From an uncultured Dehalococcoidales bacterium (GTDB taxonomy: Bacteria; Chloroflexota; Dehalococcoidia; GIF9; UBA5629): a DNA stretch of 64,000 nucleotides. Below the pieces are notes generated by a model that searched no databases, was not told where the DNA came from, and saw only the letters and a program-made list of their open reading frames with translations. This document shows, in pieces, positions 6,922 through 33,445 of the stretch. Numbering within the stretch: position 1 is the first letter of the stretch; every line of letters begins with the position of its first letter. The stretch is taken from assembly GCA_964485235.1 (NCBI GenBank), contig CAZAIO010000001.1:8657-72656 (forward strand), given 5' to 3'. A program made the translations under genes and the position numbers.

Positions 6922-7437
6922 ATGATGTTTAAACATAGACCGGCTCGCGGGGACCGTTTCTTCCATGGATACCGGCATGAAAGCCCTTTCCATAAAGGTG
7001 ATCTGAAATATGTTGTGCTGAACCTGTTGAAGGAGAAACCAAGGTACGGATATGAAATCATCCGTGAGCTTGAGGATTATTCTTACGGTTTTTACAAACC
7101 GAGCCCGGGTGTCGTTTACCCGACACTGCAAATGCTCGAAGAAATGGAATATACCACCTCTGAAGAAAGAGACGGAAAAAAAGTTTATGTAATTACCGAA
7201 GCTGGACTCCGGTTTCTCAGTGAGCGAAGCGATACTGCGAATGAAATCAAACGCAAGATGAGCCATCACTGGAACTCCGATTATTATGATATCTACAGTG
7301 AGATTTCCAGTGAATTCAAAGAACTGGGGAGACTGATGCATCGCCGTGCCCGCTTTTTGGACGCAGACAAAATACAACGAATCAGAAAAATAATTTTGCA
7401 GGCATCCGGTGAAATCGAATCTATTATTAAAGAATGA
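6922..7437 (+). CDS. PadR-family transcriptional regulator.
   Basis: PadR winged-helix signature (LLKEKPRYGYEIIRELE...GVVYPTLQMLEE). The RBS aaaggaga precedes ATGATG, so the start could be 6922 or 6925. Confidence 0.8.
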   Translation: MMFKHRPARGDRFFHGYRHESPFHKGDLKYVVLNLLKEKPRYGYEIIRELEDYSYGFYKPSPGVVYPTLQMLEEMEYTTSEERDGKKVYVITEAGLRFLSERSDTANEIKRKMSHHWNSDYYDIYSEISSEFKELGRLMHRRARFLDADKIQRIRKIILQASGEIESIIKE

Positions 7438-7455
7438 ACGGGCGAAAAAGGACTC

Positions 7456-7659
7456 ATGGCACCGTCAAGAAAAAGCGAAATTTCAGTAGAGTACGATGAT
7501 ACTCTCAAGAGCTACTATGTCATTTATGAGTTAGCCGTCGTAGGGCTGGGCAAAACAAAGCAATCCGCGTTAAAAGATCTGCGAAGTGCGGCACATTTTG
7601 GAATAGACACGACTATAGATTCTCAACTAAAAACATTTGATATAGAAAAGGAGGTCTGA
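7456..7659 (+). CDS. Small UPF0150/HicB-like protein (67 aa).
   Basis: The YYVIYELAVVGLGKTKQSALKDLRSAA segment resembles the HicB/UPF0150 fold. It follows padR after an 18-bp gap. Confidence 0.3.
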   Translation: MAPSRKSEISVEYDDTLKSYYVIYELAVVGLGKTKQSALKDLRSAAHFGIDTTIDSQLKTFDIEKEV

Positions 7660-7661
7660 TT

Positions 7662-7859
7662 ATGGGTTATTTTACGATTCTGGCAGCTATTCCCGGTTTT
7701 TTTCTGAGTTCCCTGTTTTTTATGCTTTTATGGGGCGTTATAGCACCTAAAATAGGTGTGGCGGATATCAACTATGTGACTTCCATGCTTATCACGATAA
7801 CACTCTGGATCGCCGTAGCGCCTCTTGCAGCCGCAGCCGGTAGACGGAGATGGCACTAA
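7662..7859 (+). CDS. Small two-helix membrane protein (65 aa).
   Basis: Strong RBS aaaaggagg 7 nt upstream. Two hydrophobic helices. Lies 2 bp after the previous ORF. Confidence 0.35.
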   Translation: MGYFTILAAIPGFFLSSLFFMLLWGVIAPKIGVADINYVTSMLITITLWIAVAPLAAAAGRRRWH

Positions 7860-8033
7860 ATTCAGCCTGTTAAAAAGTACCGTAAAGCAATTCTTTACTA
7901 TTTGTAGCATCTTCAGGGTACTGTAAATAGTTATCTATTTGTCTTGACACGGTATTTTTAATATGTTATTTTACCGCAATATACCTCGAATCCCTATGTC
8001 ATATATTTTATATGGTTATTAAACCTGCATCCT

Positions 8034-8477
8034 TTGCCGCTCACTATTATGGTAGATTACGAAGGAGATAACGGCTTCAGGCTTGAGGCAGGTCAGGAAT
8101 TGCCTGCCGTACAATATACGCTTGACAGATCGACTGTCGACGCCTATTTGAACGCAGTCGAGGAGTCGTCCCGGATTTATCATGAAACCGATCTCGTACC
8201 GCCTACAGCCATAGCGGCGCTTGCAATGGCGGCACTCGCTGAAGGGACCGAATTTCCCCCGGGCTCCATACACGTTTCACAAAAACTGGATTTCAAACAC
8301 AGCGTACATATCGGCGACACAATTTTCTGTCATTCCAGAATAGGCCGCAGCTACAAACGGGCAGGAATGCACCTTATTACCGTGGAACTTCGTGTGGAGA
8401 ATGCTGAAACACGCGAAGTTCTCACCGGGGAATTATCGTTTATAGCTCCGCAGGAAAGTCGCATTGAAGGAAAATGA
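8034..8477 (+). CDS. MaoC_N / FAS1-like hotdog protein (HadA-like non-catalytic dehydratase subunit).
   Basis: TTG start. Hotdog-fold N-terminal half-dehydratase, immediately upstream of a MaoC dehydratase, matching the split HadAB organisation. Confidence 0.6.
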   Translation: MPLTIMVDYEGDNGFRLEAGQELPAVQYTLDRSTVDAYLNAVEESSRIYHETDLVPPTAIAALAMAALAEGTEFPPGSIHVSQKLDFKHSVHIGDTIFCHSRIGRSYKRAGMHLITVELRVENAETREVLTGELSFIAPQESRIEGK

Positions 8478-8481
8478 ATAC

Positions 8482-8910
8482 ATGGATATTGAACACCCTT
8501 TTTCCGGACTGAAAGAAGGTGACTTCTTACCCGGTCTGAAGAAATATATTACTCAGGAGCGTATTGACCTCTATGCAAAAGCGAGCAGGGACTTCAATCC
8601 CGTACATGTCGATCCGGAGTATGCGAAAAATACACCGCTCGGGGGAACAATTGCACACGGCATGCTCAGCCTTTCCTATATATCCGAAATGATGACGATA
8701 CTGTTCAATAAATACTGGCTCGATACCGGATCTATTGATGTGAGATTTAAAACTCCCGCGCGTCCCGGCGATATTGTTACAGTAAACGGTAGTATCAAGA
8801 AAATAGAAAAGGACAATGATCGAACTTTATTTCGTTGTGATGTGTCATGTATGAATCAAAATGATGAGGTCATCGTAACAGGTGAAACACGGGTGAAAAT
8901 AATAAAATGA
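8482..8910 (+). CDS. MaoC-family (R)-specific dehydratase (HadB-like catalytic subunit).
   Basis: MaoC motif region NPVHVDPEYA...GGTIAHGM. The ATG at 8482 lies 4 nt after the upstream stop, with an RBS gaaggaaaa. Confidence 0.75.
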   Translation: MDIEHPFSGLKEGDFLPGLKKYITQERIDLYAKASRDFNPVHVDPEYAKNTPLGGTIAHGMLSLSYISEMMTILFNKYWLDTGSIDVRFKTPARPGDIVTVNGSIKKIEKDNDRTLFRCDVSCMNQNDEVIVTGETRVKIIK

Positions 8911-19939: not shown

Positions 19940-22135
19940 ATGGCTGAGATATCGATAACAATAGACGGACAACAGGTAAAAGCTGAGAGCGAAATGACCA
20001 TATATCAAGCTGCTGAAAAAGCAGGCATTTATATCCCCGGACTATGTGCTCATCCTGACCTGCCACCCTCCGGAGAATGTGGCCTCTGCCTTGTCTCAAT
20101 CGAAGGACAAGCAGACCTCGTACTGTCCTGTACTACAAAAGTCTCAGAAAATACCGTAATCACGACCAACTCTCCTGAAATACGGGCGAAGCAAAGCGAA
20201 GTACTGAATAAGATCCTCGCGGAACATCCCACCGCCTGTCTAACCTGCTGGCGAAAAGAACGCTGTAACCCGTTCGATATATGCCTCAGAAATATCGCCG
20301 TCACCGAACGATGTGTGACCTGTCCGGAAAATGGAAGGTGCGAATTACAAAAAGTAGTCGATTTTTTCGATATTACCTGTGAAACAGTACCATATACATA
20401 CAGAGATCTGCCGATTAATACAGATAATCCGTTTTTCGATCTCGATTATAATCTTTGCATTGCATGCGGACGTTGCGTTCGCGCTTGCGGCGACCTGCGT
20501 GGCATAAAAGCATTGGATTTTATTGAAATGGACGGTTATCGTGTAGCTGGTCCGGTTAATGGAACCCATAAAGATTCCGGATGCAAATACTGCTTTACCT
20601 GTGTGGAAGTTTGCCCTACCGGAGCGCTAGTCGATAAAGTGGCTCGCTATCATTCTATAGCTGAATGGGAAGCATACGTCGTTCCGTGCAAAGAAGCATG
20701 CCCGGCACATATAGATATTCCGCGTTATATTAATTACATCGCACAGGGGAAATACAGTGAAGCGCTTGCAGTGATACGGGAGAAAGTTCCGTTTCCGGGA
20801 TCGCTCGGACGTGTGTGTATTCATCCCTGTGAACAGGCATGTAGACGGGGCAATTTAAATATAGATGAACCGCTCTGTATTAAATTCCTTAAGCGGTTCG
20901 CCGCAGACCACGATACGGAATTGTGGAAAAAGAACTCCAGGATGGAGCCGTCGACAGGAAAGAAGGTTGCTGTAATCGGTTCCGGCCCTGCCGGACTGAC
21001 TGCAGCGTATTATCTGGCAAAGAAAGGACATTCGGTAACAATATTTGAAGCATTACCCGAGACCGGCGGTATGATGAGAGTGGGAATCCCGTCTTATCGC
21101 TTGCCTCGTGAAATATTGGATGCAGAAATAAAAGAAATAGAAAACGTGGGAGTGGAAATCAGGACCGGTGTAAGAATCGAATCACTGGATAATGTATTCG
21201 AACAGGGTTACGATTCCATTTTTATCGGCATAGGAGCACACAAAGGAACCAAATCGGGGATCGATGGTGAAAGCGGTCCCGGCGTACTGGACGGAGTAGA
21301 CTTTCTCCGCAAAGTCAGCTTGGGTGAAAAGGTCACAATAGGAAAAAGGATAGCGGTATTCGGTGGAGGAAATGCAGCAATTGACTGCGCACGGGTTGCA
21401 AAGCGGATTGGAGCCGAAGAGGTAACAATTCTTTATCGCCGTACCCGCGCAGAAATGCCTGCGGCTGCGGAAGAAGTCGAGGAAGCAATACATGAAGGCA
21501 TAAAAATTATTTTCCTCGTCAATCCCACCGGAATAAAACCGAAAGAAAACAGCTGCCTTGATACAGAATGTCTGCGAATGGAACTGGGAGAACCGGACGC
21601 AAGCGGGAGACGCCGTCCTGTCCCGATAAAAGGGAGTGAGTTCATCACGGAATTCGATAATTTCATTTCAAGTATCGGTCAAACGGCAGATATTCCGGAG
21701 CAGTTCAAAGTGGAGATCGGGAGAGGAAATGTTATCAAAGTGAGCAACAGGAATCTGGAAACAAGCCGAAAGGGTGTATTTGCCGGTGGCGATATAGTCA
21801 CAGGCCCGGCATCCGTCATTGGAGCCATTGCACAGGGCAGACAGGCAGCCGGCTCTATAGATAGATACCTGGGCGGAAATGGAATTATCGATGAGGAACT
21901 CATACCCTTTGAGACACCCGATAAATGGTTTGGACAGGACCTCTCATTTACGGATAAACACCAGCCGGTAATGCCGGGCATAGATGTAAAAGAGAGAATG
22001 AAAGGTTTTGTCGAAGTTGAACTCGGGTATGATGAAACTGTCGCGATCGAAGAAGCTAAACGCTGTTTCCGGTGCGATATGAGACTCCGTCTGTCCAGCC
22101 CCATGTTACCGCCTGCAAAAGTTAAATCAGCATAG
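19940..22135 (+). CDS. GltD/NfnB-like FAD/NAD(P)H oxidoreductase with an N-terminal 2Fe-2S ferredoxin and 4Fe-4S domains (731 aa).
   Basis: N-terminal NuoG-like 2Fe-2S fold (CAHPDL...CGLC), 4Fe-4S motifs (CIACGRCVRAC, CKYCFTCVEVCP), a GltD-type cluster region, and a dinucleotide fold (VAVIGSGPAGL). RBS tgaggagg. Confidence 0.75.
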   Translation: MAEISITIDGQQVKAESEMTIYQAAEKAGIYIPGLCAHPDLPPSGECGLCLVSIEGQADLVLSCTTKVSENTVITTNSPEIRAKQSEVLNKILAEHPTACLTCWRKERCNPFDICLRNIAVTERCVTCPENGRCELQKVVDFFDITCETVPYTYRDLPINTDNPFFDLDYNLCIACGRCVRACGDLRGIKALDFIEMDGYRVAGPVNGTHKDSGCKYCFTCVEVCPTGALVDKVARYHSIAEWEAYVVPCKEACPAHIDIPRYINYIAQGKYSEALAVIREKVPFPGSLGRVCIHPCEQACRRGNLNIDEPLCIKFLKRFAADHDTELWKKNSRMEPSTGKKVAVIGSGPAGLTAAYYLAKKGHSVTIFEALPETGGMMRVGIPSYRLPREILDAEIKEIENVGVEIRTGVRIESLDNVFEQGYDSIFIGIGAHKGTKSGIDGESGPGVLDGVDFLRKVSLGEKVTIGKRIAVFGGGNAAIDCARVAKRIGAEEVTILYRRTRAEMPAAAEEVEEAIHEGIKIIFLVNPTGIKPKENSCLDTECLRMELGEPDASGRRRPVPIKGSEFITEFDNFISSIGQTADIPEQFKVEIGRGNVIKVSNRNLETSRKGVFAGGDIVTGPASVIGAIAQGRQAAGSIDRYLGGNGIIDEELIPFETPDKWFGQDLSFTDKHQPVMPGIDVKERMKGFVEVELGYDETVAIEEAKRCFRCDMRLRLSSPMLPPAKVKSA

Positions 22136-22149
22136 CAACGGAGGAATAG

Positions 22150-22983
22150 ATGTACAAAATTGTAGCCAAGGAGAAACTTAATCCGGTAATCGACTACATA
22201 AGAGTGGAAGCACCTGCAGTAGCAAAGAAAGCACAGGCCGGACAATTCGTAGTAATCCGCGTCGACGAAGTGGGTGAGCGGATTCCGTTAACACTGGCAG
22301 ACTGGGATGCAAAAGAAGGCACAGTTACCCTGGTAGCCATGAAAGTCGGGACCTCGACCTATAAATTATCCAGCCTGAATACCGGAGATAGTATACTCAA
22401 CCTTGTTGGTCCGCTTGGGCTGGCATCAGATATCGAAGATTTTGGAACCGTAATATGTGTAGGGGGCGGTGTAGGAATAGCGCCCGTCTATCCGATAGCC
22501 CGTTCGCTTAAAAAAGCGGGAAACAAGGTCATTTCGATAATAGGAGCACGAAATAAAGACCTTTTATTCTGGGAAGACAGAATGAAAAGCGTAAGCGATG
22601 AACTTGTTGTAACCACCGATGACGGCTCATACGCAAGAAAAGGGCTTGTGACTGAACCGTTGAAAGAGTTTTTACAAAAAGAAAAAGTAGCCCGTGTAAT
22701 TGCCATCGGGCCGGCAATAATGATGAAATTTTGCTCGCTTACTACCAAAGAATTTAACGTACCGACATTTGTAAGTCTCAATTCAATTATGGTCGATGGT
22801 ACGGGGATGTGCGGTTGCTGCCGTGTCTCCGTAGGAGATAAAACAAAATTTGCATGTGTGGATGGACCTGACTTCGACGGACATGAGGTTGACTGGGACG
22901 TACTCGCTAAAAGACAGCAGAGTTATCTAAACCAGGAAAAGAAGTCCATGGAATTATGGGAATGCCACTGTAAAAAAGCCTGA
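22150..22983 (+). CDS. nfnA: NfnA-like / PyrK-like ferredoxin-NADP reductase subunit. Small subunit of an NADH-dependent reduced-ferredoxin:NADP oxidoreductase.
   Basis: FNR-like fold with a C-terminal 2Fe-2S motif (GTGMCGCCRV...FACVDGP). Confidence 0.75.
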   Translation: MYKIVAKEKLNPVIDYIRVEAPAVAKKAQAGQFVVIRVDEVGERIPLTLADWDAKEGTVTLVAMKVGTSTYKLSSLNTGDSILNLVGPLGLASDIEDFGTVICVGGGVGIAPVYPIARSLKKAGNKVISIIGARNKDLLFWEDRMKSVSDELVVTTDDGSYARKGLVTEPLKEFLQKEKVARVIAIGPAIMMKFCSLTTKEFNVPTFVSLNSIMVDGTGMCGCCRVSVGDKTKFACVDGPDFDGHEVDWDVLAKRQQSYLNQEKKSMELWECHCKKA

Positions 22984-22998
22984 TTTTGGAGGATAGCG

Positions 22999-24417
22999 TT
23001 GGAAGAACAAGCAAAACCGAAAATTGATTTAAATCGAGTACCCATGCCTCATCAGGACCCCAAGGTCCGGGCAAAAAATTACGATGAAGTTGCCGTCGGA
23101 TACACACATGAAATGGCATTACAGGAAGCCAATCGCTGTATTCAGTGTAAAAAACGCCCGTGCGTTTCCGGCTGCCCCGTAAATGTAGATATACCGGAAT
23201 TTATTGCGGCAATCAGGAACAATGATATGCCCGGTGCGGTCAAAGCATTAAAGGGAAAGAACAGCCTTCCCGGCATCTGCGGACGCGTTTGTCCTCAAGA
23301 AACACAATGTGAAAGTCTCTGTACACTGGGAAAGAAAGGTGCACCGGTTGCTATCGGCCGTCTGGAGCGGTTTGTTGCCGATTGGGAACGAAATTCAAAA
23401 GGAGCAACAGGAACACAATCATCTGATATTGCCCCGTCATCGGGGAAGAAAGTAGCCGTCATCGGCTCGGGACCTGCCGGACTTACATGCGCGGCAGACC
23501 TTGCTAAAATGGGACATAAAGTCACCATGTTCGAGGCGCTTCATGTAGCGGGAGGCGTCCTTATGTACGGCATTCCGGAGTTCCGTTTACCGAAGGCTAT
23601 CGTGCAGAACGAAGTAAAATATATACAATCGCTGGGTGTTGAGCTAAATCTTGACTCAGTTATGGGTAAGCTGGAAACGGTAGATGAACTGCTTCAGAAC
23701 GGGTATGATGCTGTATTTCTGGGAACAGGCGCGGGATTGCCGATGTTCCAGAATATACCCGGTGAAAACTTCAACGGAGTGTACTCGGCGAATGAGTTTC
23801 TCACCAGGATCAACCTTATGAAAGCATACCTTTTCCCGGAATACGATACGCCCATCATGGTCGGTAAAAGGGTTGCTGTAGTCGGAGGCGGTAATGTTGC
23901 CATGGACTCTGCCCGCTGTGCACTCAGGCTGGGCGCGGACGAAGTATATATCATCTACCGCAGGTCAAAGGCAGAAATGCCTGCCCGTCGCGAAGAGGTT
24001 GAAAACGCAGAAGAGGAAGGAATAATATTTAAATTCCTCACCAACCCCAAAAGCTATCTCGGCGATGAACGAGGCTGGGTAAAAGCAATCGAATGTTATG
24101 AGATGGAGCTCGGTGAACCCGATGAAAGCGGACGCCGCCGCCCTGTAGTGAAACCGAACAGCGAATTCGCCATCGATATCGATGTCGCGGTAGTTGCACT
24201 GGGAACGACACCGAACCCGCTTATCCCGTCGACCACAGATGGACTCGAAACGACAAAACGCGGCACAGTAGTTGCCGATGAAGAAACGGGAAAGACCATG
24301 AAAGATCGTGTCTGGGCCGGTGGCGACGTGGTAACCGGCGCTGCAACAGTTATCAGCGCGATGGGAGCCGGAAAAAGAGCGGCAGCTTCAATAGATGCCT
24401 TTTTAAAAGGAAAATAA
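22999..24417 (+). CDS. nfnB: NfnB / glutamate synthase small-chain (GltD)-like iron-sulfur flavoprotein.
   Basis: 4Fe-4S region (CIQCKKRPCVSGCP), VAVIGSGPAGL, and a C-terminal FAD/NAD domain. Probable TTG start preceded by the RBS ttggagga. Confidence 0.8.
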   Translation: MEEQAKPKIDLNRVPMPHQDPKVRAKNYDEVAVGYTHEMALQEANRCIQCKKRPCVSGCPVNVDIPEFIAAIRNNDMPGAVKALKGKNSLPGICGRVCPQETQCESLCTLGKKGAPVAIGRLERFVADWERNSKGATGTQSSDIAPSSGKKVAVIGSGPAGLTCAADLAKMGHKVTMFEALHVAGGVLMYGIPEFRLPKAIVQNEVKYIQSLGVELNLDSVMGKLETVDELLQNGYDAVFLGTGAGLPMFQNIPGENFNGVYSANEFLTRINLMKAYLFPEYDTPIMVGKRVAVVGGGNVAMDSARCALRLGADEVYIIYRRSKAEMPARREEVENAEEEGIIFKFLTNPKSYLGDERGWVKAIECYEMELGEPDESGRRRPVVKPNSEFAIDIDVAVVALGTTPNPLIPSTTDGLETTKRGTVVADEETGKTMKDRVWAGGDVVTGAATVISAMGAGKRAAASIDAFLKGK

Positions 24418-24437
24418 GCGAAATAGAATATAAGCAC

Positions 24438-24466
24438 TTGACAAAGTGCTTATATATATTTACAAT
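24438..24466 (+). promoter_or_regulatory. Near-consensus sigma-70 promoter: TTGACA, 17 bp, TACAAT. Drives the T-box leader.
   Basis: TTGACA at 24438-24443 and TACAAT at 24461-24466. Confidence 0.45.
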
Positions 24467-24469
24467 TCA

Positions 24470-24770
24470 CGCAATTAAATAATGTAAAGGCTTTGAGCAA
24501 GACTAGTAAATCTTATGCGAAGCTACAGAGAACCGGGTTAGCTGGAAACCGGTGCCAGCGGTAAGGTTGAATGGACTTGGGAGCCGCAAACCGAAAGAGC
24601 AGATACTTGAGTAGGCTTTGACGCAAAGGGTAGCGTTATCACAATCCAGGGTATCACTTCACATGTTGTGAAGCCGTACCTGAAAGAGACAGTCGAAAGA
24701 CTAACAAGGGTGGTACCGCGAAAGCAAGCCTCTCGCCCCTTGAGCGAGAGGCTTATTTTTTTACACGGGA
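24470..24770 (+). promoter_or_regulatory. T-box riboswitch leader, probably with a Trp (UGG) specifier, ending in a terminator.
   Basis: Canonical T-box sequence aacaaGGGTGGTACCGCG at 24703-24720. Terminator aagcctctcgc-ccctt-gagcgagaggctt followed by eight T at 24726-24766. Stem I region with an AGAGA motif and GAAUGGA / UGGA candidate specifier contexts. Confidence 0.7.
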
Positions 24771-24886
24771 GGAAAAGATGGCAGATGTAATAATAAAGAT
24801 GTGGCCCCTGAGGGGCCTTAAGTTCGATTAAACTATTATATGTCCCGTTCTCTATTAATAAAAACTTATTATTGAAAGGAGTGAAA

Positions 24887-26248
24887 ATGGAACGATACAA
24901 GTATGTTTTAGATGAAAAAGAGATGCCGACTCAATGGTATAATATCCAGGCAGATTTTCCGGAACCTTTACCCCCGGTACTGCATCCCGCCACGGGAAAT
25001 CCGGTTACACCGGATGATCTTGCGCCTCTCTTTCCAATGGAATGCATCATGCAAGAGGTAAGTACAGAGCGGTGGATTGAAATCCCCGAGGAAGTACAGG
25101 ATGTTTATAAGACATGGAGGCCAACAGTTTTACACCGTGCCCACCGGCTCGAAAAGGCCCTGGACACACCCGCAAAGATTTTCTATAAATATGAGGGGAC
25201 CAGTCAGGCAGGAAGCCATAAACCCAATACTGCCATCGCACAAGCGTACTACAACAAAAAAGAAGGCATCAAGAGAATAACGACAGAGACCGGTGCCGGT
25301 CAGTGGGGCAGCGCACTATCACTCGCCGGTGCATTCTTCGGAATTGAAATAAAAGTATATATGGTCTCTGTAAGCTATCACCAGAAGCCTTATCGCCGGA
25401 TCATGATGGAAGTATGGGGAGCCAAGTGTGTTCCCAGCCCAAGCCGTGATACAAAAGCAGGACGGGATGCACTGGCAAAGGACCCGAACAGTCCGGGTAG
25501 CCTTGGCCTGGCAATCAGTGAAGCTGTGGAAGAATGCGTCTCCCGCGATGATACCCATTATTCTCTCGGGAGCGTACTGAACCACGTCCTGTTACACCAG
25601 ACCATCAACGGGCTTGAGACAAAGATATTAATGGAACGGGCGGGCGTCTACCCTGATATCATTATCGGATGTGTCGGTGGAGGATCTAACTTTGCCGGAA
25701 TGTTCCTGCCGTTTCTTAAAGACAAAATCGAGGGCAAAAAGCCCGATCTGCGAATAATTAACGTAGAACCGGCAAGTTGTCCGACGTTGACTAAAGGCCC
25801 TGACGCCTATGATTTCGGAGATGTGTCCGGTCTTACTCCATTGATGAAGATGTATACACTGGGCCATGATTTTATGCCGCCTCCGGTTCATGCCGGCGGA
25901 CTGCGCTATCATGGTATGGCACCCATTATCAGCCATTGTCTGCGTCTCGGACTCGTCGAAGCAAGAGCCGAGCATCAACTGGATACCTTTGAAGCAGGTA
26001 TAACTTTCGCTCGCACTGAAGGTATAATCAGCGCTCCGGAAACCAACCATGCCATCAGGACAACGATAACTGAAGCTCTGAAATGTCGCGAATCAGGCGA
26101 AGCAAAGGTCATTTTAATGAACCACAGCGGACATGGCCATGTTGATATGGCTGCTTATGAAGCCTATCTGTCGGGTAAACTTCAGAACTACGAATATCCC
26201 GAAGAACTGGTAAAGGAAGCACTGACTCATTTACCTAAAGTAGGCTAA
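24887..26248 (+). CDS. trpB2: TrpB2-type tryptophan synthase beta-like PLP enzyme.
   Basis: N-terminus [30 protein letters not shown], typical of the TrpB2 clade. A PLP lysine lies in the [11 protein letters not shown] context. RBS aaaggag. Confidence 0.85.
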
Positions 26249-27664: not shown

Positions 27665-30600
27665 TTATTCTGCCGCTTTATTGATACCGAAAATAACTTC
27701 TTTGCCGGACAATTTATGTTTTTCAGTATAACTTTCTACAGGGGGTGTTTCCGCAATAAGATCGCGTGACAGGGTCTCCTGGCGAATATAATCCCCGAAC
27801 TTTTCCATAACTGTTGCAAGAGAATTGTCGTCGGAATAATACACTATTATAGAATCAGTTATATCCAGCCCGGCGGAACGTCTCATGGTCTGCAAACGCC
27901 TCACTACCTCACGAGCTATACCTTCAGCTTTCAATTCCGGAGATAACTCTGTATCTACCGCAACCCAGAGATCGCCTTCCGTGACCGCAATAATACCGGG
28001 AGCACCATCCTCTACAGCATTCTCTATATACTCGATACTTTTTACATTTAATTCATCGAGTATCTGATTATCCAGTCTCACCAGGTAGTTTTGTTCCGTC
28101 TCCGATTTAATTCTTACAAGTACTTTCGGTAAAGGTTGCCTGACCTTTACTCCCGCTTTTGCCCTGGCGGCACGGCCGAGACTACACACCTTCATTACAA
28201 GGTCGGTAGCATCATCGAGCTTTCGGTCTATTAAGGATCTATCTGCAACGGGAAATTCAGTAAGATGAACACTTTGCGCGGCATCCGTATCGACAGACAA
28301 TACCATGTTCCGGTAAAGCGCTTCAGCTACAAACGGGATAAAAGGAGCAAGCAGCTTTGAGAGGACAACGAGGCACCGGTAGAGCGTATAGTATGCCGAC
28401 ATTTTATCGTCATCACTCTGGCTTTTCCAAAAACGGCGACGGCTGCGTCTTACATACCAGTTTGAAAGGTCGTTGACAAAAATCTCTATTTTCCGCCCGC
28501 CTGTAGTTGGATCATAATGCTCGAGCGCATCCTCAACATCGATAATAAGCTGGTTCAATCTTGAAAGAGCCCATTTGTCCAGGTCAGATGATGTGGTAAC
28601 TTCCCTGTTGTCAGGACTAAACTGGTCGATATTGGCATACATGACAAAAAAGGAGTACGTATTCCAGAGTGTAAGCATAAAATTGCGCACGACCTCTGAA
28701 ACCATATCGGTGGAAAAACGCCGTACATTTCCTGCCGGAGAAGAGGTGAAAAGATACCATCTGACTGCATCGGCACCGTATTCATCGAGCACTTTCCACG
28801 GGTCGACAACATTTCCTTTCGCCTTGCTCATTTTTTCGCCTTCGGCGTCGAGAATATGGCCGAGACAGATTACGTTTTCAAAGCAATTTTTCCCGAAAAG
28901 CAACGTTGAAAGTGCATGCAGACTATAGAACCAACCGCGCGTCTGGTCGACAGCTTCACAAATATAATCGGCGGGGAAACTGTGCTCAAATACATCGTTA
29001 TTTTCAAAAGGATAGTGGAATTGCGCAAGCGGCATATTTCCGGAATCAAACCAGCAGTCGATTACTTCCGGCTGCCTTTTCATTGTTCCGCCACACCCGG
29101 GACAGGAGAAAGTGATATTATCTACGTACGGACGATGAAGGTCCAATGATTCAGTAAGTCCGCTGATTCCGGGTTTATCACGCAGTTCGGAAACACTTCC
29201 TATACATTCATAATGCCCGCATTCCGGACAATTCCAGATACAAAGCGGTGTTCCCCAGTAACGTTCTCGCGAAAACGCCCAGTCGATGTTATTATTCAGC
29301 CAATCTCCAAAACGGCCGTATTTAATATGGTCCGGGTACCAGTTGATACGCGCATTACCGGCGATAAGCTCTTCTTTTTTCGCAGTTGTCCTGATGTACC
29401 ATGTCCGTTTCGCATAATAAAGCAACGGTGACTCACAACGCCAGCAAAAAGGATAAGTATGCTTTATAGTCTCGCTCCTGAATAAAAGACCGCGCGCTTT
29501 CAGGTCTTCAAGCACCATCGGGTCTGCATCTTTGACGAATTTACCCGAAAACGGATAAGTGCCGGTCATTTTGCCTTCCAGGCTGACCGGTTGTACAAAA
29601 TCGAGACCATTAATCTTGCCTGCATCAAAATCCACTTCCCCGAAAGCAGGTGCAACATGTACAATACCCGTTCCGTCATCCAGCGACACAAAATCCGCGC
29701 CTATCACATGATAGGTAAGATCGGGAACAGTTTCCTGTACCTCGAATTCTTCTCGTATAGAACCAGCATTAACATGATTATCGGTCCGCGGACGTCTCCG
29801 CTCTACTCCGAACTTATGAGGATTAAAGAGCGGTTCATAGGTTGCATTCACCAGTGTATCGCCCTTTACTATTTCTTCAATCCGGGCATCACCGAGCCCT
29901 ACCGATGCGAGCAGGTCTACCGCCATGATTAGATATTCATCATTGACTTCAATAACAGCGTATTCAGCTTCAGGTGCAATAGCCAGTGCAGTATTACCCG
30001 GTAATGTCCACGGTGTCGTAGTCCATGCCAGGAAATATGCATTCTTTTCAGAAAAACATTTCTCCAGCTTCCGGATAACCGTGTCCGAAAGCTTCGTATG
30101 CCTGAGTGAGTCCTGCACAAGTTTAAACTTTATGTAAACTGATGGGTCTTCTGTATCTTCACGATACCCCAGGGCTACTTCATGGGAACTAAGCGATGTT
30201 CCACATCTCGGACAATGCGGGGTCGTCTTGTACCCCTGATACACCAGTCCCTTATCCCACAATTGTTTGATAGTCCACCAGCCGGACTCGATATAGTTAT
30301 TATCTAGTGTGATATAGGGGTGGTCCAGATCAAGCCAGAAGCCGATGCGTTTGGTTATCGCATTCCAACCGTCCAGATATTTAAAAACGCTTTCCCTGCA
30401 AAGTGCATTGAACTCGGCTACTCCATATTGTTCGATCTCTGCCTTACCTGAAAAACCAAGCTTCTTCTCTATTTCCAGTTCAACAGGGAGTCCGTGTGTA
30501 TCCCATCCGGCTTTTCTGGGTGCATAAAAGCCTTTCATACATTTATAACGCGGCATGATATCTTTGAACACCCTTGACAGGACGTGATGAATTCCGGGGT

Positions 30601-30757
30601 TACCGTTCGCAGTAGGAGGGCCGTCATAGAGGGTATATTGTGTTGCCCCGCGGCGAGCTTCAACACTCTTCTCAAATATTTTTTGGTCTTCCCAAAAATC
30701 AAGGATTTCCTTTTCCAGCTGCGGAAAATTAATCCTGCTGTTTACCGGTTTAAACAT
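27665..30757 (-). CDS. ileS: Isoleucine--tRNA ligase (type 2, 1030 aa).
   Basis: HIGH-type motif (PPTANGNPGIHH), KMSKS (KMSKAKGN), zinc-binding cysteines, and overall class-I LIVM synthetase architecture. Confidence 0.95.
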   Translation of the reverse strand: MFKPVNSRINFPQLEKEILDFWEDQKIFEKSVEARRGATQYTLYDGPPTANGNPGIHHVLSRVFKDIMPRYKCMKGFYAPRKAGWDTHGLPVELEIEKKLGFSGKAEIEQYGVAEFNALCRESVFKYLDGWNAITKRIGFWLDLDHPYITLDNNYIESGWWTIKQLWDKGLVYQGYKTTPHCPRCGTSLSSHEVALGYREDTEDPSVYIKFKLVQDSLRHTKLSDTVIRKLEKCFSEKNAYFLAWTTTPWTLPGNTALAIAPEAEYAVIEVNDEYLIMAVDLLASVGLGDARIEEIVKGDTLVNATYEPLFNPHKFGVERRRPRTDNHVNAGSIREEFEVQETVPDLTYHVIGADFVSLDDGTGIVHVAPAFGEVDFDAGKINGLDFVQPVSLEGKMTGTYPFSGKFVKDADPMVLEDLKARGLLFRSETIKHTYPFCWRCESPLLYYAKRTWYIRTTAKKEELIAGNARINWYPDHIKYGRFGDWLNNNIDWAFSRERYWGTPLCIWNCPECGHYECIGSVSELRDKPGISGLTESLDLHRPYVDNITFSCPGCGGTMKRQPEVIDCWFDSGNMPLAQFHYPFENNDVFEHSFPADYICEAVDQTRGWFYSLHALSTLLFGKNCFENVICLGHILDAEGEKMSKAKGNVVDPWKVLDEYGADAVRWYLFTSSPAGNVRRFSTDMVSEVVRNFMLTLWNTYSFFVMYANIDQFSPDNREVTTSSDLDKWALSRLNQLIIDVEDALEHYDPTTGGRKIEIFVNDLSNWYVRRSRRRFWKSQSDDDKMSAYYTLYRCLVVLSKLLAPFIPFVAEALYRNMVLSVDTDAAQSVHLTEFPVADRSLIDRKLDDATDLVMKVCSLGRAARAKAGVKVRQPLPKVLVRIKSETEQNYLVRLDNQILDELNVKSIEYIENAVEDGAPGIIAVTEGDLWVAVDTELSPELKAEGIAREVVRRLQTMRRSAGLDITDSIIVYYSDDNSLATVMEKFGDYIRQETLSRDLIAETPPVESYTEKHKLSGKEVIFGINKAAE

Positions 30758-30759
30758 TG

Positions 30760-31416
30760 CTAATGATGTTTCCTTAGCTGGATGACCACTTTTCTTCTCT
30801 CTCCGAAATCTATGCTGTGTGTTGAGACATCCGGATTCTCAGCCAGTGCCAGATGGATAATACGTCGCTCATCCGCCGGCATAGGCTCAAGATTCATAGA
30901 CCGTTTGCTCGTTTTTACCTGTTCGGCAACACGCAGCGCCAGATTTTTCAGTGCATTATACCGTCGCTTTTTATAACCTTCGATATCTACTGTAATTGGT
31001 GCCCATAGCTTGAACTTCTCAGCGACAATAAGCTTGACCATATATTGCAGCGACGATAAAGCCTGACCACGCCTGCCTATCAATACTCCAAGGTCATCAC
31101 CTTCAATATTCAAAGTAATCTGCTGGCTATCTTCCTCTGATTCAATGATTTTAATTTCAGCCGCAAGCCCCAGATGTTTAAGAAGCGTTTCCAATACTGA
31201 TTTTGCTTCTTCAGCAATGTTGTTTTGTTCTACATTATTATCAAGAAACCTTACCTTAACTCTGGCTTCTTCCGCCCCTACCCCCAGCACTCCCGATCTG
31301 CCTTTCTTCACCACGTCTATCTCCACCTGGTTTTTGGTAGCACCAAGCTGCACTAAAGCTGACTCTACAGCTTCATCAACTGTTCTGGCATTTACTTCAA
31401 TTTCTTTTTTATTCAC
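30760..31416 (-). CDS. jag: Jag/SpoIIIJ-associated KH-R3H RNA-binding protein.
   Basis: KH and R3H domain order. Conserved position downstream of yidC. Confidence 0.8.
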   Translation of the reverse strand: MNKKEIEVNARTVDEAVESALVQLGATKNQVEIDVVKKGRSGVLGVGAEEARVKVRFLDNNVEQNNIAEEAKSVLETLLKHLGLAAEIKIIESEEDSQQITLNIEGDDLGVLIGRRGQALSSLQYMVKLIVAEKFKLWAPITVDIEGYKKRRYNALKNLALRVAEQVKTSKRSMNLEPMPADERRIIHLALAENPDVSTHSIDFGERRKVVIQLRKHH

Positions 31417-32240
31417 TTCTTAAATAATCCCTTTTTCTTCTCGTATGCTTTGCTTACTACTTTTGATTGTTGCTCCGCAGCAGGTAATTTTGGAGTTGGC
31501 GCTGCTTTCTTTATAGTCGGAGTAAATTTAAGATAGCCCCATCCACCTGTGGCAAAATATTGAATCGCAATACCTATAAGATTCGATACCACCCAGTACA
31601 AAGCAAGTCCACTCGGGAATGATAGTGTAAACAGACCGAACATTAACGGCATCATTAATGTCGTCATTTGTGTCATCGATTGCTGTTTAGGATCAGTAGG
31701 AGGCGCAGTAACCATTTTTTGCTGTATCCACATCGAGCCGCCTACCAGAATTGCCAGGACAAATGTTGAGTCCGGCTTCGACAGGTGGAGCCATAGAAAT
31801 TGTTCGTTCAATGGTATAGCGTGTGTAACTACTGTCCATTCATAAAGATGCCGGGACAGGTCGAGCAAATTTTCCGGTGTTGCTGCAAGAGCCCGGATAA
31901 TAGCCTGATAAAGTGCAATCCATATAGGGAACTGTAATAACATCGGCCACATGCATCCCAGCGGGTTAATTCCGGCCTCTTTATACAGCGCCATAATCTC
32001 CTGCTGCAGTTTTTGCTGGTTCCTGCCGTACTTCTTTTGAAGCTCCTGAATTCTAGGCTGTAGGGACTGCATGGCTTTGGTCGATCGTGTCTGGCGTACG
32101 GTAAGCGGATACATTATCAGACGGACAACGATCGTAAGCAAGATAATTGCAACTCCGAAATTGTCCATCAACATCGTACTTAATGCGATAAGACAATTAA
32201 TTACCGGATTGAGTATTATTAAATTCCAAATTTCAATCAT
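31413..32240 (-). CDS. yidC: Membrane protein insertase YidC (short monoderm-type form).
   Basis: 275 aa. Conserved hydrophilic-groove region. Overlaps the jag start by 4 bp. Confidence 0.85.
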   Translation of the reverse strand: MIEIWNLIILNPVINCLIALSTMLMDNFGVAIILLTIVVRLIMYPLTVRQTRSTKAMQSLQPRIQELQKKYGRNQQKLQQEIMALYKEAGINPLGCMWPMLLQFPIWIALYQAIIRALAATPENLLDLSRHLYEWTVVTHAIPLNEQFLWLHLSKPDSTFVLAILVGGSMWIQQKMVTAPPTDPKQQSMTQMTTLMMPLMFGLFTLSFPSGLALYWVVSNLIGIAIQYFATGGWGYLKFTPTIKKAAPTPKLPAAEQQSKVVSKAYEKKKGLFKK

Positions 32241-32248
32241 AAATTACA

Positions 32249-33445
32249 TTACTCAATTTTTGTATCAAATTCCCAGAGTTGATTGCCGCTTTGTATATCA
32301 ATAGCATATATTTTATGGTTCCTTGCATGAACAAAAATAGTATCACCCTCTGCGAAAAGCGGAGCCATAACGGTTGCATCGATTGAAACTTGAAGTAATG
32401 AAGAACCGGTGGTTTTATCGATAGAATGTAATTCTCCGGACTCTGAAACAACAACCACACGATTGCCCGTCAATACAGGCGGCGATACGATCGGGTCGTC
32501 AACAGTGAACTTCCATAGTTCCTTACCGGTTTGCAGATCTATAGCATAAAGAGTTTTATCGAGACATGCGGCGTAAACTGTTGTTCCCTCTACCACAGGA
32601 GCAGCCCAGAACCAGTTCTCTCCTTTGAATTGCCATAAAAGACTGCCGTCCTGCTTGTTGAGCGCATAAAGATAACGGTCGAAGGCGCCGTACAATATTG
32701 TATTGCCGGAACAAACGGGTGAAGATGCCATAGATGCGGGCAATTTCTTTTGCCATAATTCATTACCATCTTCTGCATTAAGCGCATAGAGATTTCCATC
32801 GTAGCTACCGATATAGACCACTCCGTCACTCACTGCCGGTGATGTCCATATCCGTTGTTCAGTGAGTTTGACCTCCCATTTTTTCGCCACATATTCGGCA
32901 TCAATTGCATACACGCTTCCGTTGGAACTAGTAATATAAATAATACCCTTATCGATCACCATATTTCCCACCACTTTACCAATCCCCTCCCCCTGCACGG
33001 GATATTTCTTACCTATTTCTCCCGCTACTTTTTCGTCGCGATATAACGCATATAATTGACCGTCATTTGCACTATACGTAGCTACAAATACGTATTCATC
33101 TGATAATACCGGGGTACTGTAAATTACAGCGCCTGCGGATTGTTGTTGCCCGCATGAAAACATAGGCCCGCATAATCCACCGGCAGGAGCCGCAGATTTT
33201 ACATCAGTTGCAATCCATTCGCCTTCACTACTGGGGAAAGCAAGGCCTTTACTGCGAGCAGAAGGATTTATAGCCAGTAAATTACCGTCCATAGATCCGA
33301 CATAAAGAATACCATCCATAGTCGCAAAACCGGACCAGCCTTGGGCAGCCGGACCGCCACAACCCGTTGTAGTGCCGGTAGCCGACATACACCCCGTACA
33401 GACAGCGAGCAGGACTATGGTTATCAGCAAACTGATTTTTCTCAT
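32249..33445 (-). CDS. PQQ-like beta-propeller repeat lipoprotein (BamB-like fold).
   Basis: Lipobox LAVCTGC. Repeated G-x-LYA-xD-xx-GxxLW blades occur about 8 times. Confidence 0.65.
   Translation of the reverse strand: MRKISLLITIVLLAVCTGCMSATGTTTGCGGPAAQGWSGFATMDGILYVGSMDGNLLAINPSARSKGLAFPSSEGEWIATDVKSAAPAGGLCGPMFSCGQQQSAGAVIYSTPVLSDEYVFVATYSANDGQLYALYRDEKVAGEIGKKYPVQGEGIGKVVGNMVIDKGIIYITSSNGSVYAIDAEYVAKKWEVKLTEQRIWTSPAVSDGVVYIGSYDGNLYALNAEDGNELWQKKLPASMASSPVCSGNTILYGAFDRYLYALNKQDGSLLWQFKGENWFWAAPVVEGTTVYAACLDKTLYAIDLQTGKELWKFTVDDPIVSPPVLTGNRVVVVSESGELHSIDKTTGSSLLQVSIDATVMAPLFAEGDTIFVHARNHKIYAIDIQSGNQLWEFDTKIE

Follow-up and report, generated by a model that had tools for sequence, protein, structure and literature searches.

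A Trp-codon leader ORF with a G:C hairpin between the tryptophan T-box and trpB2 in uncultivated Dehalococcoidia and Atribacterota

To our knowledge, the combination of a T-box with a leader peptide containing Trp codons has a single textbook case so far, the anti-TRAP operon of Bacillus subtilis. The leader peptide of this operon, rtpLP, contains three consecutive Trp codons and stops at the Shine-Dalgarno (SD) sequence of rtpA, where the terminating ribosome blocks initiation. The leader of the rtpA (anti-TRAP) operon has been described with both a Trp T-box and the Trp-codon leader peptide rtpLP (Chen and Yanofsky, Science 2003 and Mol Cell 2004). We analysed a comparable arrangement in a 64-kb stretch of DNA from an uncultured Dehalococcoidales bacterium (the whole stretch is hereafter named the window), where a stand-alone trpB2 gene, encoding a tryptophan synthase beta chain of type 2, is preceded by a Trp T-box and by a 17-codon open reading frame (ORF) located between the T-box terminator and the gene (Table 1). 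This leader ORF belongs to a family of 63 distinct sequences. As in the rtpA leader, the closest system known, a Trp T-box terminator is followed by a short Trp-codon ORF and then by the regulated gene, and two sensors of tRNA-Trp charging would act in series, one at the level of transcription and the other through ribosome stalling, which in our case is deduced. The construction is different, however. Instead of the three consecutive Trp codons of rtpLP, the members of the family have one or two (WxW or WW), which lie in a conserved G:C hairpin and are nearly always followed by CCC; the stop codon is free in position, whereas that of rtpLP is at the downstream SD, a geometry seen in only about six members; the target is trpB2 in Chloroflexota/Atribacterota, and no sequence similarity is apparent. 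Hence, out of three features of the B. subtilis arrangement, the ORF between the Trp T-box terminator and the gene was found, but neither the run of consecutive Trp codons nor the stop at the SD. What appears to be new here, judging from sequence comparison, is the leader-ORF-plus-hairpin module, which would follow the logic of rtpA with a different construction.

Two other groups of systems were compared with the family. In attenuators of the Escherichia coli trpL type, the leader peptide likewise contains Trp codons, and these form part of the 5' strand of a hairpin, corresponding to segment 1 of the 1:2 pairing. In contrast to them, neither a 3:4 terminator nor an alternative 2:3 pairing follows the leader ORF here, and this ORF comes after a complete T-box terminator. 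The family shares the hairpin over the Trp codon with classical trp attenuators, but not the subsequent terminator or alternative pairing. TnaC, ErmCL, ErmBL and PepNL are, like the members of the family, short upstream ORFs with Trp and Pro (Pro-stop in some of them) at or near the stall site. The Erm leaders stall at codons 6-10, as proposed here, and TnaC and PepNL share the link to Trp. TnaC, with its conserved Trp and Asp, depends on Trp12 and on Pro24-stop at a distance of 12 residues, responds to free Trp and exerts its effect by blocking Rho. Neither this spacing nor a Rho block was recognised in the family, in which Trp and Pro are adjacent, the spacer before the gene is not rut-like and only 5 of the 63 peptides end directly after Pro, four of these having the stop in the hairpin loop. 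No NCBIfam or Pfam profile matched the eight longer leader peptides searched, at E values up to 10.

The 63 sequences that constitute the family after de-duplication come from genome loci collected by TrpB2 homology, from pattern matches in metagenomes and from the window copy. The arrangement SD-ATG-(5-9 codons)-UGG-CCC-hairpin was present in 23 genome loci retrieved solely via TrpB2 homology. For the comparison of leaders, 32 T-box trpB2 leaders were used, corresponding to 31 of 80 related genome loci plus the window, with the T-box motif located 80-270 nt before the gene; besides the window copy, the leader ORF was found in 19 of them, from Dehalococcoidia and Atribacterota. It was also observed without an adjacent T-box in three loci: L008, where it lies between trpA and trpB2, L022, from a spirochaete metagenome-assembled genome (MAG), and L032. 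The metagenomes were scanned with a pattern composed of the T-box motif and the hairpin core only, leaving the downstream gene unspecified. Among 120 matches, 41 were true copies, the remainder being chance matches in GC-rich coding DNA. trpB2 is directly downstream of 36 of these copies, and four run off the contig. The copy in L100 (minus strand as fetched, near the high-coordinate end of the contig) precedes trpD-trpC-trpF, and those in L126 (~7400-8700) and L181, also on the minus strand as fetched, precede the gene for an ABC substrate-binding lipoprotein and then trpB2. All metagenome copies with readable downstream genes thus have a Trp-pathway context.

On this comparative evidence, many uncultivated Dehalococcoidia and Atribacterota carry the leader ORF with its hairpin as a conserved and apparently undescribed module. 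When positions 24740-24900 were searched against Rfam with permissive settings, only chance-level matches were obtained. No description of the leader ORF was found in the literature searched, which did not extend to two central reviews and may thus have missed an earlier one. The module would represent a second, independently built version of the T-box plus Trp leader-peptide arrangement, widespread in these uncultivated groups and placed almost exclusively on trpB2.

We infer that the 17-codon frame of the window is translated, because of its strong SD and because the frame is kept: in 61 of the 63 members the start codon linked to the SD shares its frame with the UGG codon. The distance from ATG to UGG takes five values (15, 18, 21, 24 and 27 nt), all of them multiples of three, and virtually every member has a strong SD ahead of its start codon. 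This anchor Trp is codon 8 in 40 sequences, codon 9 in 12 and codon 6, 7 or 10 in the others (n = 63). A second Trp codon is present in 26/63, almost always at position -2 or -1 (WxWP or WWP, as in SWQWP, SWRWP, RWWP and KWTWP). Trp amounts to 7.1% of the non-anchor residues, versus 1.1% in the genes of the window, a 6-fold excess (binomial P = 2e-12, a value that overstates independence, since the sequences of the family are related). Pro follows the anchor Trp in 60 members. The stop codon may lie in the hairpin loop (WP-stop, four members) or 1-28 codons further on, or it may overlap with the start codon that follows; the distance from stop to start has a median of 45 nt and a range of -4 to 74, and in the window the stop precedes the trpB2 ATG by 55 nt.

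These results bear on the preliminary description of the locus. The GGGAGG ribosome-binding site (RBS) and the 17-codon ORF are present as it described them, and the single TGG codon does overlap the hairpin, as it had pointed out; the distance between the terminator and trpB2, given there as 110 nt, is ~124 nt when measured from the end of the U-run. It had also suggested a second, leader-peptide layer of Trp sensing, and had set beforehand the absence of the ORF and hairpin from orthologous leaders as the result that would speak against it. Both were looked for in those leaders and are conserved, which supports the suggested second layer.

The pattern of conservation also indicates that the hairpin has its function as RNA. 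All 24 leaders found through TrpB2 homology alone have it, versus 4% of the other TGG sites in the same loci. All three members devoid of Pro keep the pairing, with CGC (Arg) in L008 and L015 and CUC (Leu) in L045; in two of these members a C-G pair has been exchanged for G-C. Four leaders (WP-stop) have the stop in the loop, and their 3' arm, although consequently never translated, still pairs. Moreover, CCC is used for Pro in 58 of 60 cases, compared with 25% of the Pro codons in the window genes, while the loop is free both in length (3-8 nt) and in sequence. Since the arms are nearly invariant there is little true covariation, and classical covariation support is thin. RNAalifold gave no consensus structure for 29 leaders because MAFFT left the 3' arms out of register, and the hairpin pairs were counted by script instead. 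The metagenome set had been ascertained with the TGGCC..GGCC core and was thus unusable for testing those pairs. Two features of the family go beyond current attenuation models, namely a G:C hairpin that starts at the putative regulatory Trp codon and the free position of the stop. For annotators, SD-ATG-UGG-CCC-hairpin provides a simple signature of a missed small ORF.

Our interpretation, to which we assign a probability of roughly 60%, is that two Trp sensors operate in series on trpB2, the T-box on transcription and then ribosome stalling at the UGG codon of the leader ORF. In the first one, the anticodon of uncharged tRNA-Trp would pair with the UGG specifier and the 3' end of this tRNA with the UGGU bulge, whose last base would form a G:U wobble with the discriminator. 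The antiterminator stabilised in this way would allow RNA polymerase to read through the terminator. In the second, the 17-codon leader ORF would be translated on the read-through transcript, and when charged Trp-tRNA is scarce, the ribosome would stall with the UGG codon in the A site. A ribosome stalled at this point would keep the GGCCCC 5' arm in the mRNA channel, blocking the hairpin, and would cover its own start site, located ~7-8 codons behind, so that a second ribosome could neither load nor collide with it; in the family the stall would be only 5-9 codons from the start, which should block reloading in general. With ample Trp-tRNA, the ribosome would reach the stop codon and leave, and the hairpin would re-form. 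The parked ribosome and the open hairpin might then raise trpB2 expression after transcription initiation, whereas a closed hairpin without a parked ribosome might damp leaky read-through transcripts.

The output of the second sensor can be proposed only tentatively. We lean, with considerable doubt, towards an output in which the parked ribosome protects or stabilises the downstream mRNA, rather than one in which the trpB2 RBS is unmasked. Stalling in the ermC and ermA leader peptides stabilises the downstream mRNA, and by analogy a ribosome parked early in the leader ORF here, where a second one would be unable to load, might shield the mRNA that follows. Between the end of the hairpin and the start codon after it there are 45-82 nt (median 57), a fairly narrow range that leaves room for the parked and the initiating ribosomes together. 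It was also considered whether the spacer contains an internal promoter for which the palindrome would serve as operator, but no promoter was predicted, and the variable length of the loop (3-8 nt) argues against a protein operator. A small and sharply defined element such as this one gives tractable access to what may be a new output mechanism, and also to the conditions under which TrpB2 is wanted by the cell.

Several observations weigh against two sensors in series. Unmasking of the trpB2 RBS does not hold as a general mechanism: when 20 leaders were folded, first freely and then with all bases up to UGG+8 constrained to be single-stranded, the mean accessibility of the trpB2 SD was 0.57 in the free leader versus 0.59 with a ribosome at the UGG codon, with no consistent direction. 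No second terminator was predicted after the hairpin, where the bases are purine-rich and not U-rich. The composition of the spacer (A 48%, T 26%, C 13% and G 12%, with a median C/G of 1.0) does not point to a Rho-loading (rut) site, and no other block or structure conserved across the family was found in it, except for an A run before the SD. The leader ORF is missing from 12 of the 32 T-box trpB2 leaders and is, therefore, dispensable. The window copy, with a single Trp codon, would be a weaker hungry-codon sensor. Both translation of the leader ORF and stalling in it are deduced from conservation. In addition, residues -3 to -1 are conserved despite synonymous codons, which hints at a role for the nascent peptide.

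This last point leads to nascent-peptide arrest, an unlikely explanation that nevertheless survives best among the alternatives. The sequence Ser-[Trp/Arg/Lys]-[Arg/Met/Trp/Gln]-Trp-Pro would stall the ribosome from the exit tunnel, either intrinsically or by binding a small molecule such as free tryptophan or indole, the substrate of TrpB2. In that case the peptide, rather than an empty A site, would be the sensor. Ser is found at -3 in 23/63 peptides, Trp, Arg or Lys at -2 in 49/63 and Arg, Met, Trp or Gln at -1 in 45/63. Ser and Arg are spelled by about four to six synonymous codons (four for Ser, and five for Arg at each of positions -2 and -1), i.e. what is kept is the amino acid. Arg, Lys and Trp at -2 might all stack on an indole ring, the frequent Pro-Pro, Pro-Gly and Pro-stop (five) sequences after the anchor are known slow contexts, and a stall at codons 6-10 matches the length of the drug-sensing Erm/Cat leader peptides. 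On the other hand, extra Trp codons beside the anchor are the classic signature of a hungry-codon sensor; Pro looks like a by-product of the hairpin, given the almost exclusive use of CCC and the hairpin retained in 3/3 Pro-less members; part of the peptide similarity may be explained by shared ancestry; and the profile searches mentioned above revealed no known arrest family. Were this explanation correct, the family would be a new class of very short arrest peptide, Ser-[Trp/Arg/Lys]-x-Trp-Pro, that senses free tryptophan or indole and has a hairpin starting at the stall codon. Expression of trpB2 would then need uncharged tRNA-Trp, through the T-box, plus a second signal, and the output would fit no known scheme (no RBS masking, terminator or Rho-loading site).

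It is very unlikely that the element functions as RNA only, the hairpin being a site for processing, stability or protein binding and the ORF being incidental or serving only to load ribosomes. The nearly invariant sequence of the hairpin arms agrees with such a role, and three decayed copies (L027, L038 and L040) keep the SD and start without the Trp codon, suggesting that ribosome loading has value. However, the start is in frame in 61/63 across five spacings, all multiples of three, Trp codons are enriched, and the free length and sequence of the loop are unlike a specific protein site. Ranked just behind, and hardly to be expected either, is occlusion of the rtpLP type, in which the ribosome finishing the leader ORF would block the trpB2 RBS from the stop codon and a stall at UGG would free this site. 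Apart from the B. subtilis precedent, the ATGA stop/start overlap in L022 and L126, the stop 2-4 nt before the SD in L008 and L100, and the stop 14 nt (L125) and 20 nt (L103) before the start codon are compatible with it. Nevertheless, the 55 nt that separate the stop from the trpB2 ATG in the window, the distances seen in the family and the stop located within the hairpin loop in four members indicate that this is neither the general mechanism nor the one operating in the window. For the same reasons, the translational coupling offered as an option in the preliminary description was not sustained as a general mechanism. Finally, although a short ORF is not rare in an A/T-rich spacer of ~120 nt, an accidental origin of the 17-codon frame and hairpin in the long spacer between T-box and gene is ruled out, because both are kept in the 63 distinct leaders, which come from Dehalococcoidia, from Atribacterota and from one spirochaete MAG and whose flanks have diverged.

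The T-box on which the proposed first sensor depends is an ordinary member of the Trp class, i.e. of a kind already known. The leader matched RF00230 with 107.4 bits (gathering score, 93; E = 9.5e-23) over the full-length model (positions 1-219), and this was the only Rfam match at or above the gathering score across the 64-kb window. The covariance-model alignment placed GAA-UGG-A in the specifier loop of Stem I, a codon followed by a purine, which identifies the specifier as a Trp codon; GAA-UGG-R was found in Stem I of 25 of the 32 orthologous trpB2 leaders. In the T-box sequence itself (GGGTGGTACCGCG), the variable base is U (position 24713). The antiterminator folds with a 7-nt UGGUACC bulge (-11 kcal/mol), and the terminator has a minimum free energy of -23.2 kcal/mol (z = -3.1). 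The terminator stem and the antiterminator share the strand CGCCCCUU and are, thus, mutually exclusive folds. The near-consensus promoter (11/12 matches), the canonical T-box with a strong terminator and the Trp specifier, all of them put forward in the preliminary description, are borne out by these data, at the positions given there or a few bases away, and the specifier was verified by the very RF00230 alignment that it had recommended. It had, however, regarded the UGGU bulge as odd, implying an A73 discriminator. According to the TBDB preprint, U occupies this position of the bulge in 46% of the Trp T-boxes, with a cognate tRNA-Trp bearing G73 (G:U wobble), and the bulge is therefore not anomalous. 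Among the 32 orthologous trpB2 T-boxes, the variable base of UGGN is C in 25 and U in 7. The discriminator of tRNA-Trp was sought, but there are no tRNA genes in the window and no tRNA-Trp genes in 60 related loci.

Wels et al. (2008) reported three T-boxes in Dehalococcoides, on ileS, trpE and a trpB-like gene, and T-box control of a trpB-like gene in this genus is thus already published. The T-box of the window resembles those Trp T-boxes in its full architecture, UGG specifier and UGGN bulge, without any difference; the added leader ORF is what does not appear in the literature searched. A T-box was also looked for before the ileS gene of the window (27665-30757, minus strand) and none was found; this gene directly follows other genes (27665-33445, minus strand).

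The assignment of the downstream gene was examined with protein models. Its product exceeded the cut-off of both TrpB2 models, NF009057 (725 bits; cut-off, 366) and TIGR01415 (639 bits; cut-off, 519), whereas the canonical TrpB model TIGR00263 gave 143 bits, below its cut-off of 392. An identical protein is encoded on two JGI metagenome contigs, and the closest genomic relatives, with 82-85% identity, are from Dehalococcoidales and Dehalococcoidia MAGs. The neighbouring genes are NfnAB/glutamate-synthase-like upstream, and those for an HtrA protease and ileS downstream; none is a trp gene, and trpB2 can be considered stand-alone in its immediate context. This agrees with the lone TrpB2-type gene of the earlier account, although its ATG is at 24887 and not at 24888 as stated there. 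There is continuing debate about the physiological role of TrpB2 (indole salvage).

Upstream of the T-box, three genes in succession (19940-24417) encode iron-sulfur/flavin oxidoreductases of the NfnAB/glutamate-synthase-small-subunit type. The first of these proteins (731 aa) is a fusion of a 2Fe-2S/NuoG-like domain, at the N terminus, with a GltD-like domain, and a gltA-like gene (22999-24417) immediately precedes the promoter region. The 12-bp inverted repeat that comes next is probably the terminator of this upstream operon. The -35 hexamer of the T-box promoter sits within the loop of the repeat, so that the region in which the upstream operon terminates overlaps with the one in which the T-box transcript is initiated.

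Table 1. Positions of the leader and trpB2 features in the window
Feature	Position	Strand	Evidence or remark
Perfect 12-bp inverted repeat ATATAAGCACTT / AAGTGCTTATAT	24428..24455	+	Read from sequence; directly after the stop of the gltA-like gene
Sigma-70-type promoter TTGACA-17-TACAAT	24438..24466	+	11/12 matches; consensus match only
T-box leader RNA: Stem I, Stem II/III region, antiterminator	24484..24743	+	Rfam RF00230
Specifier codon UGG (Trp), context GAA-UGG-A (24569-24575)	24572..24574	+	Covariance-model alignment
T-box sequence GGGUGGUACCGCG	24707..24719	+	Bulge UGGU (24710-24713) complementary to tRNA 3' end NCCA
Intrinsic T-box terminator, 11-bp stem (7 G:C pairs), then AUUUUUUU	24726..24762	+	Stem 24726-24754
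Leader-ORF SD GGGAGG, 5 nt before ATG	24767..24772	+	Sequence
Leader ORF, 17 codons, Trp as codon 9, stop 24829-24831	24778..24831	+	Translation, family conservation
Putative regulatory Trp codon UGG, then Pro CCC	24802..24804	+	Sequence, family counts
G:C hairpin GGCCCC-uga-GGGGCC, 5' arm beginning inside the Trp codon	24803..24817	+	-12.4 kcal/mol
A/U-rich spacer, no conserved structure	24832..24875	+	Family composition
trpB2 SD AAGGAG	24876..24881	+	Sequence
trpB2: TrpB-like PLP enzyme, tryptophan synthase beta type 2, 453 aa	24887..26248	+	NF009057, TIGR01415

Some related loci showed variations of the leader. In an Atribacteria trpB2 leader (L010:2365-2830), a single Stem I with its specifier is followed by two serial antiterminator-plus-terminator modules and then by the Trp leader ORF. 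These modules read AGAGUGGCACCACGG...U7 and then GGGUGGCACCGCGG...U6, with UGCCCGUAC before each of them, and only the first is scored by Rfam. In a deltaproteobacterial MAG (L034:1-504), trpB2 is preceded by a classical attenuator, with the leader peptide MGKVVGSNAWWCWWWKTESVH (WWCWWW) and intrinsic terminators, which replaces the T-box; a degenerate remnant of the SD-ORF-hairpin arrangement was visible downstream of the attenuator.

Apparently decayed leader ORFs that conserve a strong SD and the start codon were detected between trpA and trpB2 in L027:150-253 and L038:2900-3000, where they are reduced to ATG-TAG. Another such case, ATG-TTT-TGA, was seen after the T-box of a Dehalogenimonas MAG (L040:2600-2720). 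The retention of the SD and start in copies without the Trp codon hints that ribosome loading upstream of trpB2 may itself be useful. In L003 and L004 the ATG of the leader ORF is changed to ATA. Lastly, in L045:2560-3010 the terminator, the leader ORF and the trpB2 start are present twice, with NN between the two copies; the doubling probably stems from the assembly or else from a duplication that occurred recently. In the first copy, Trp-Leu (UGG CUC) replaces Trp-Pro and the hairpin contains a G:U pair.

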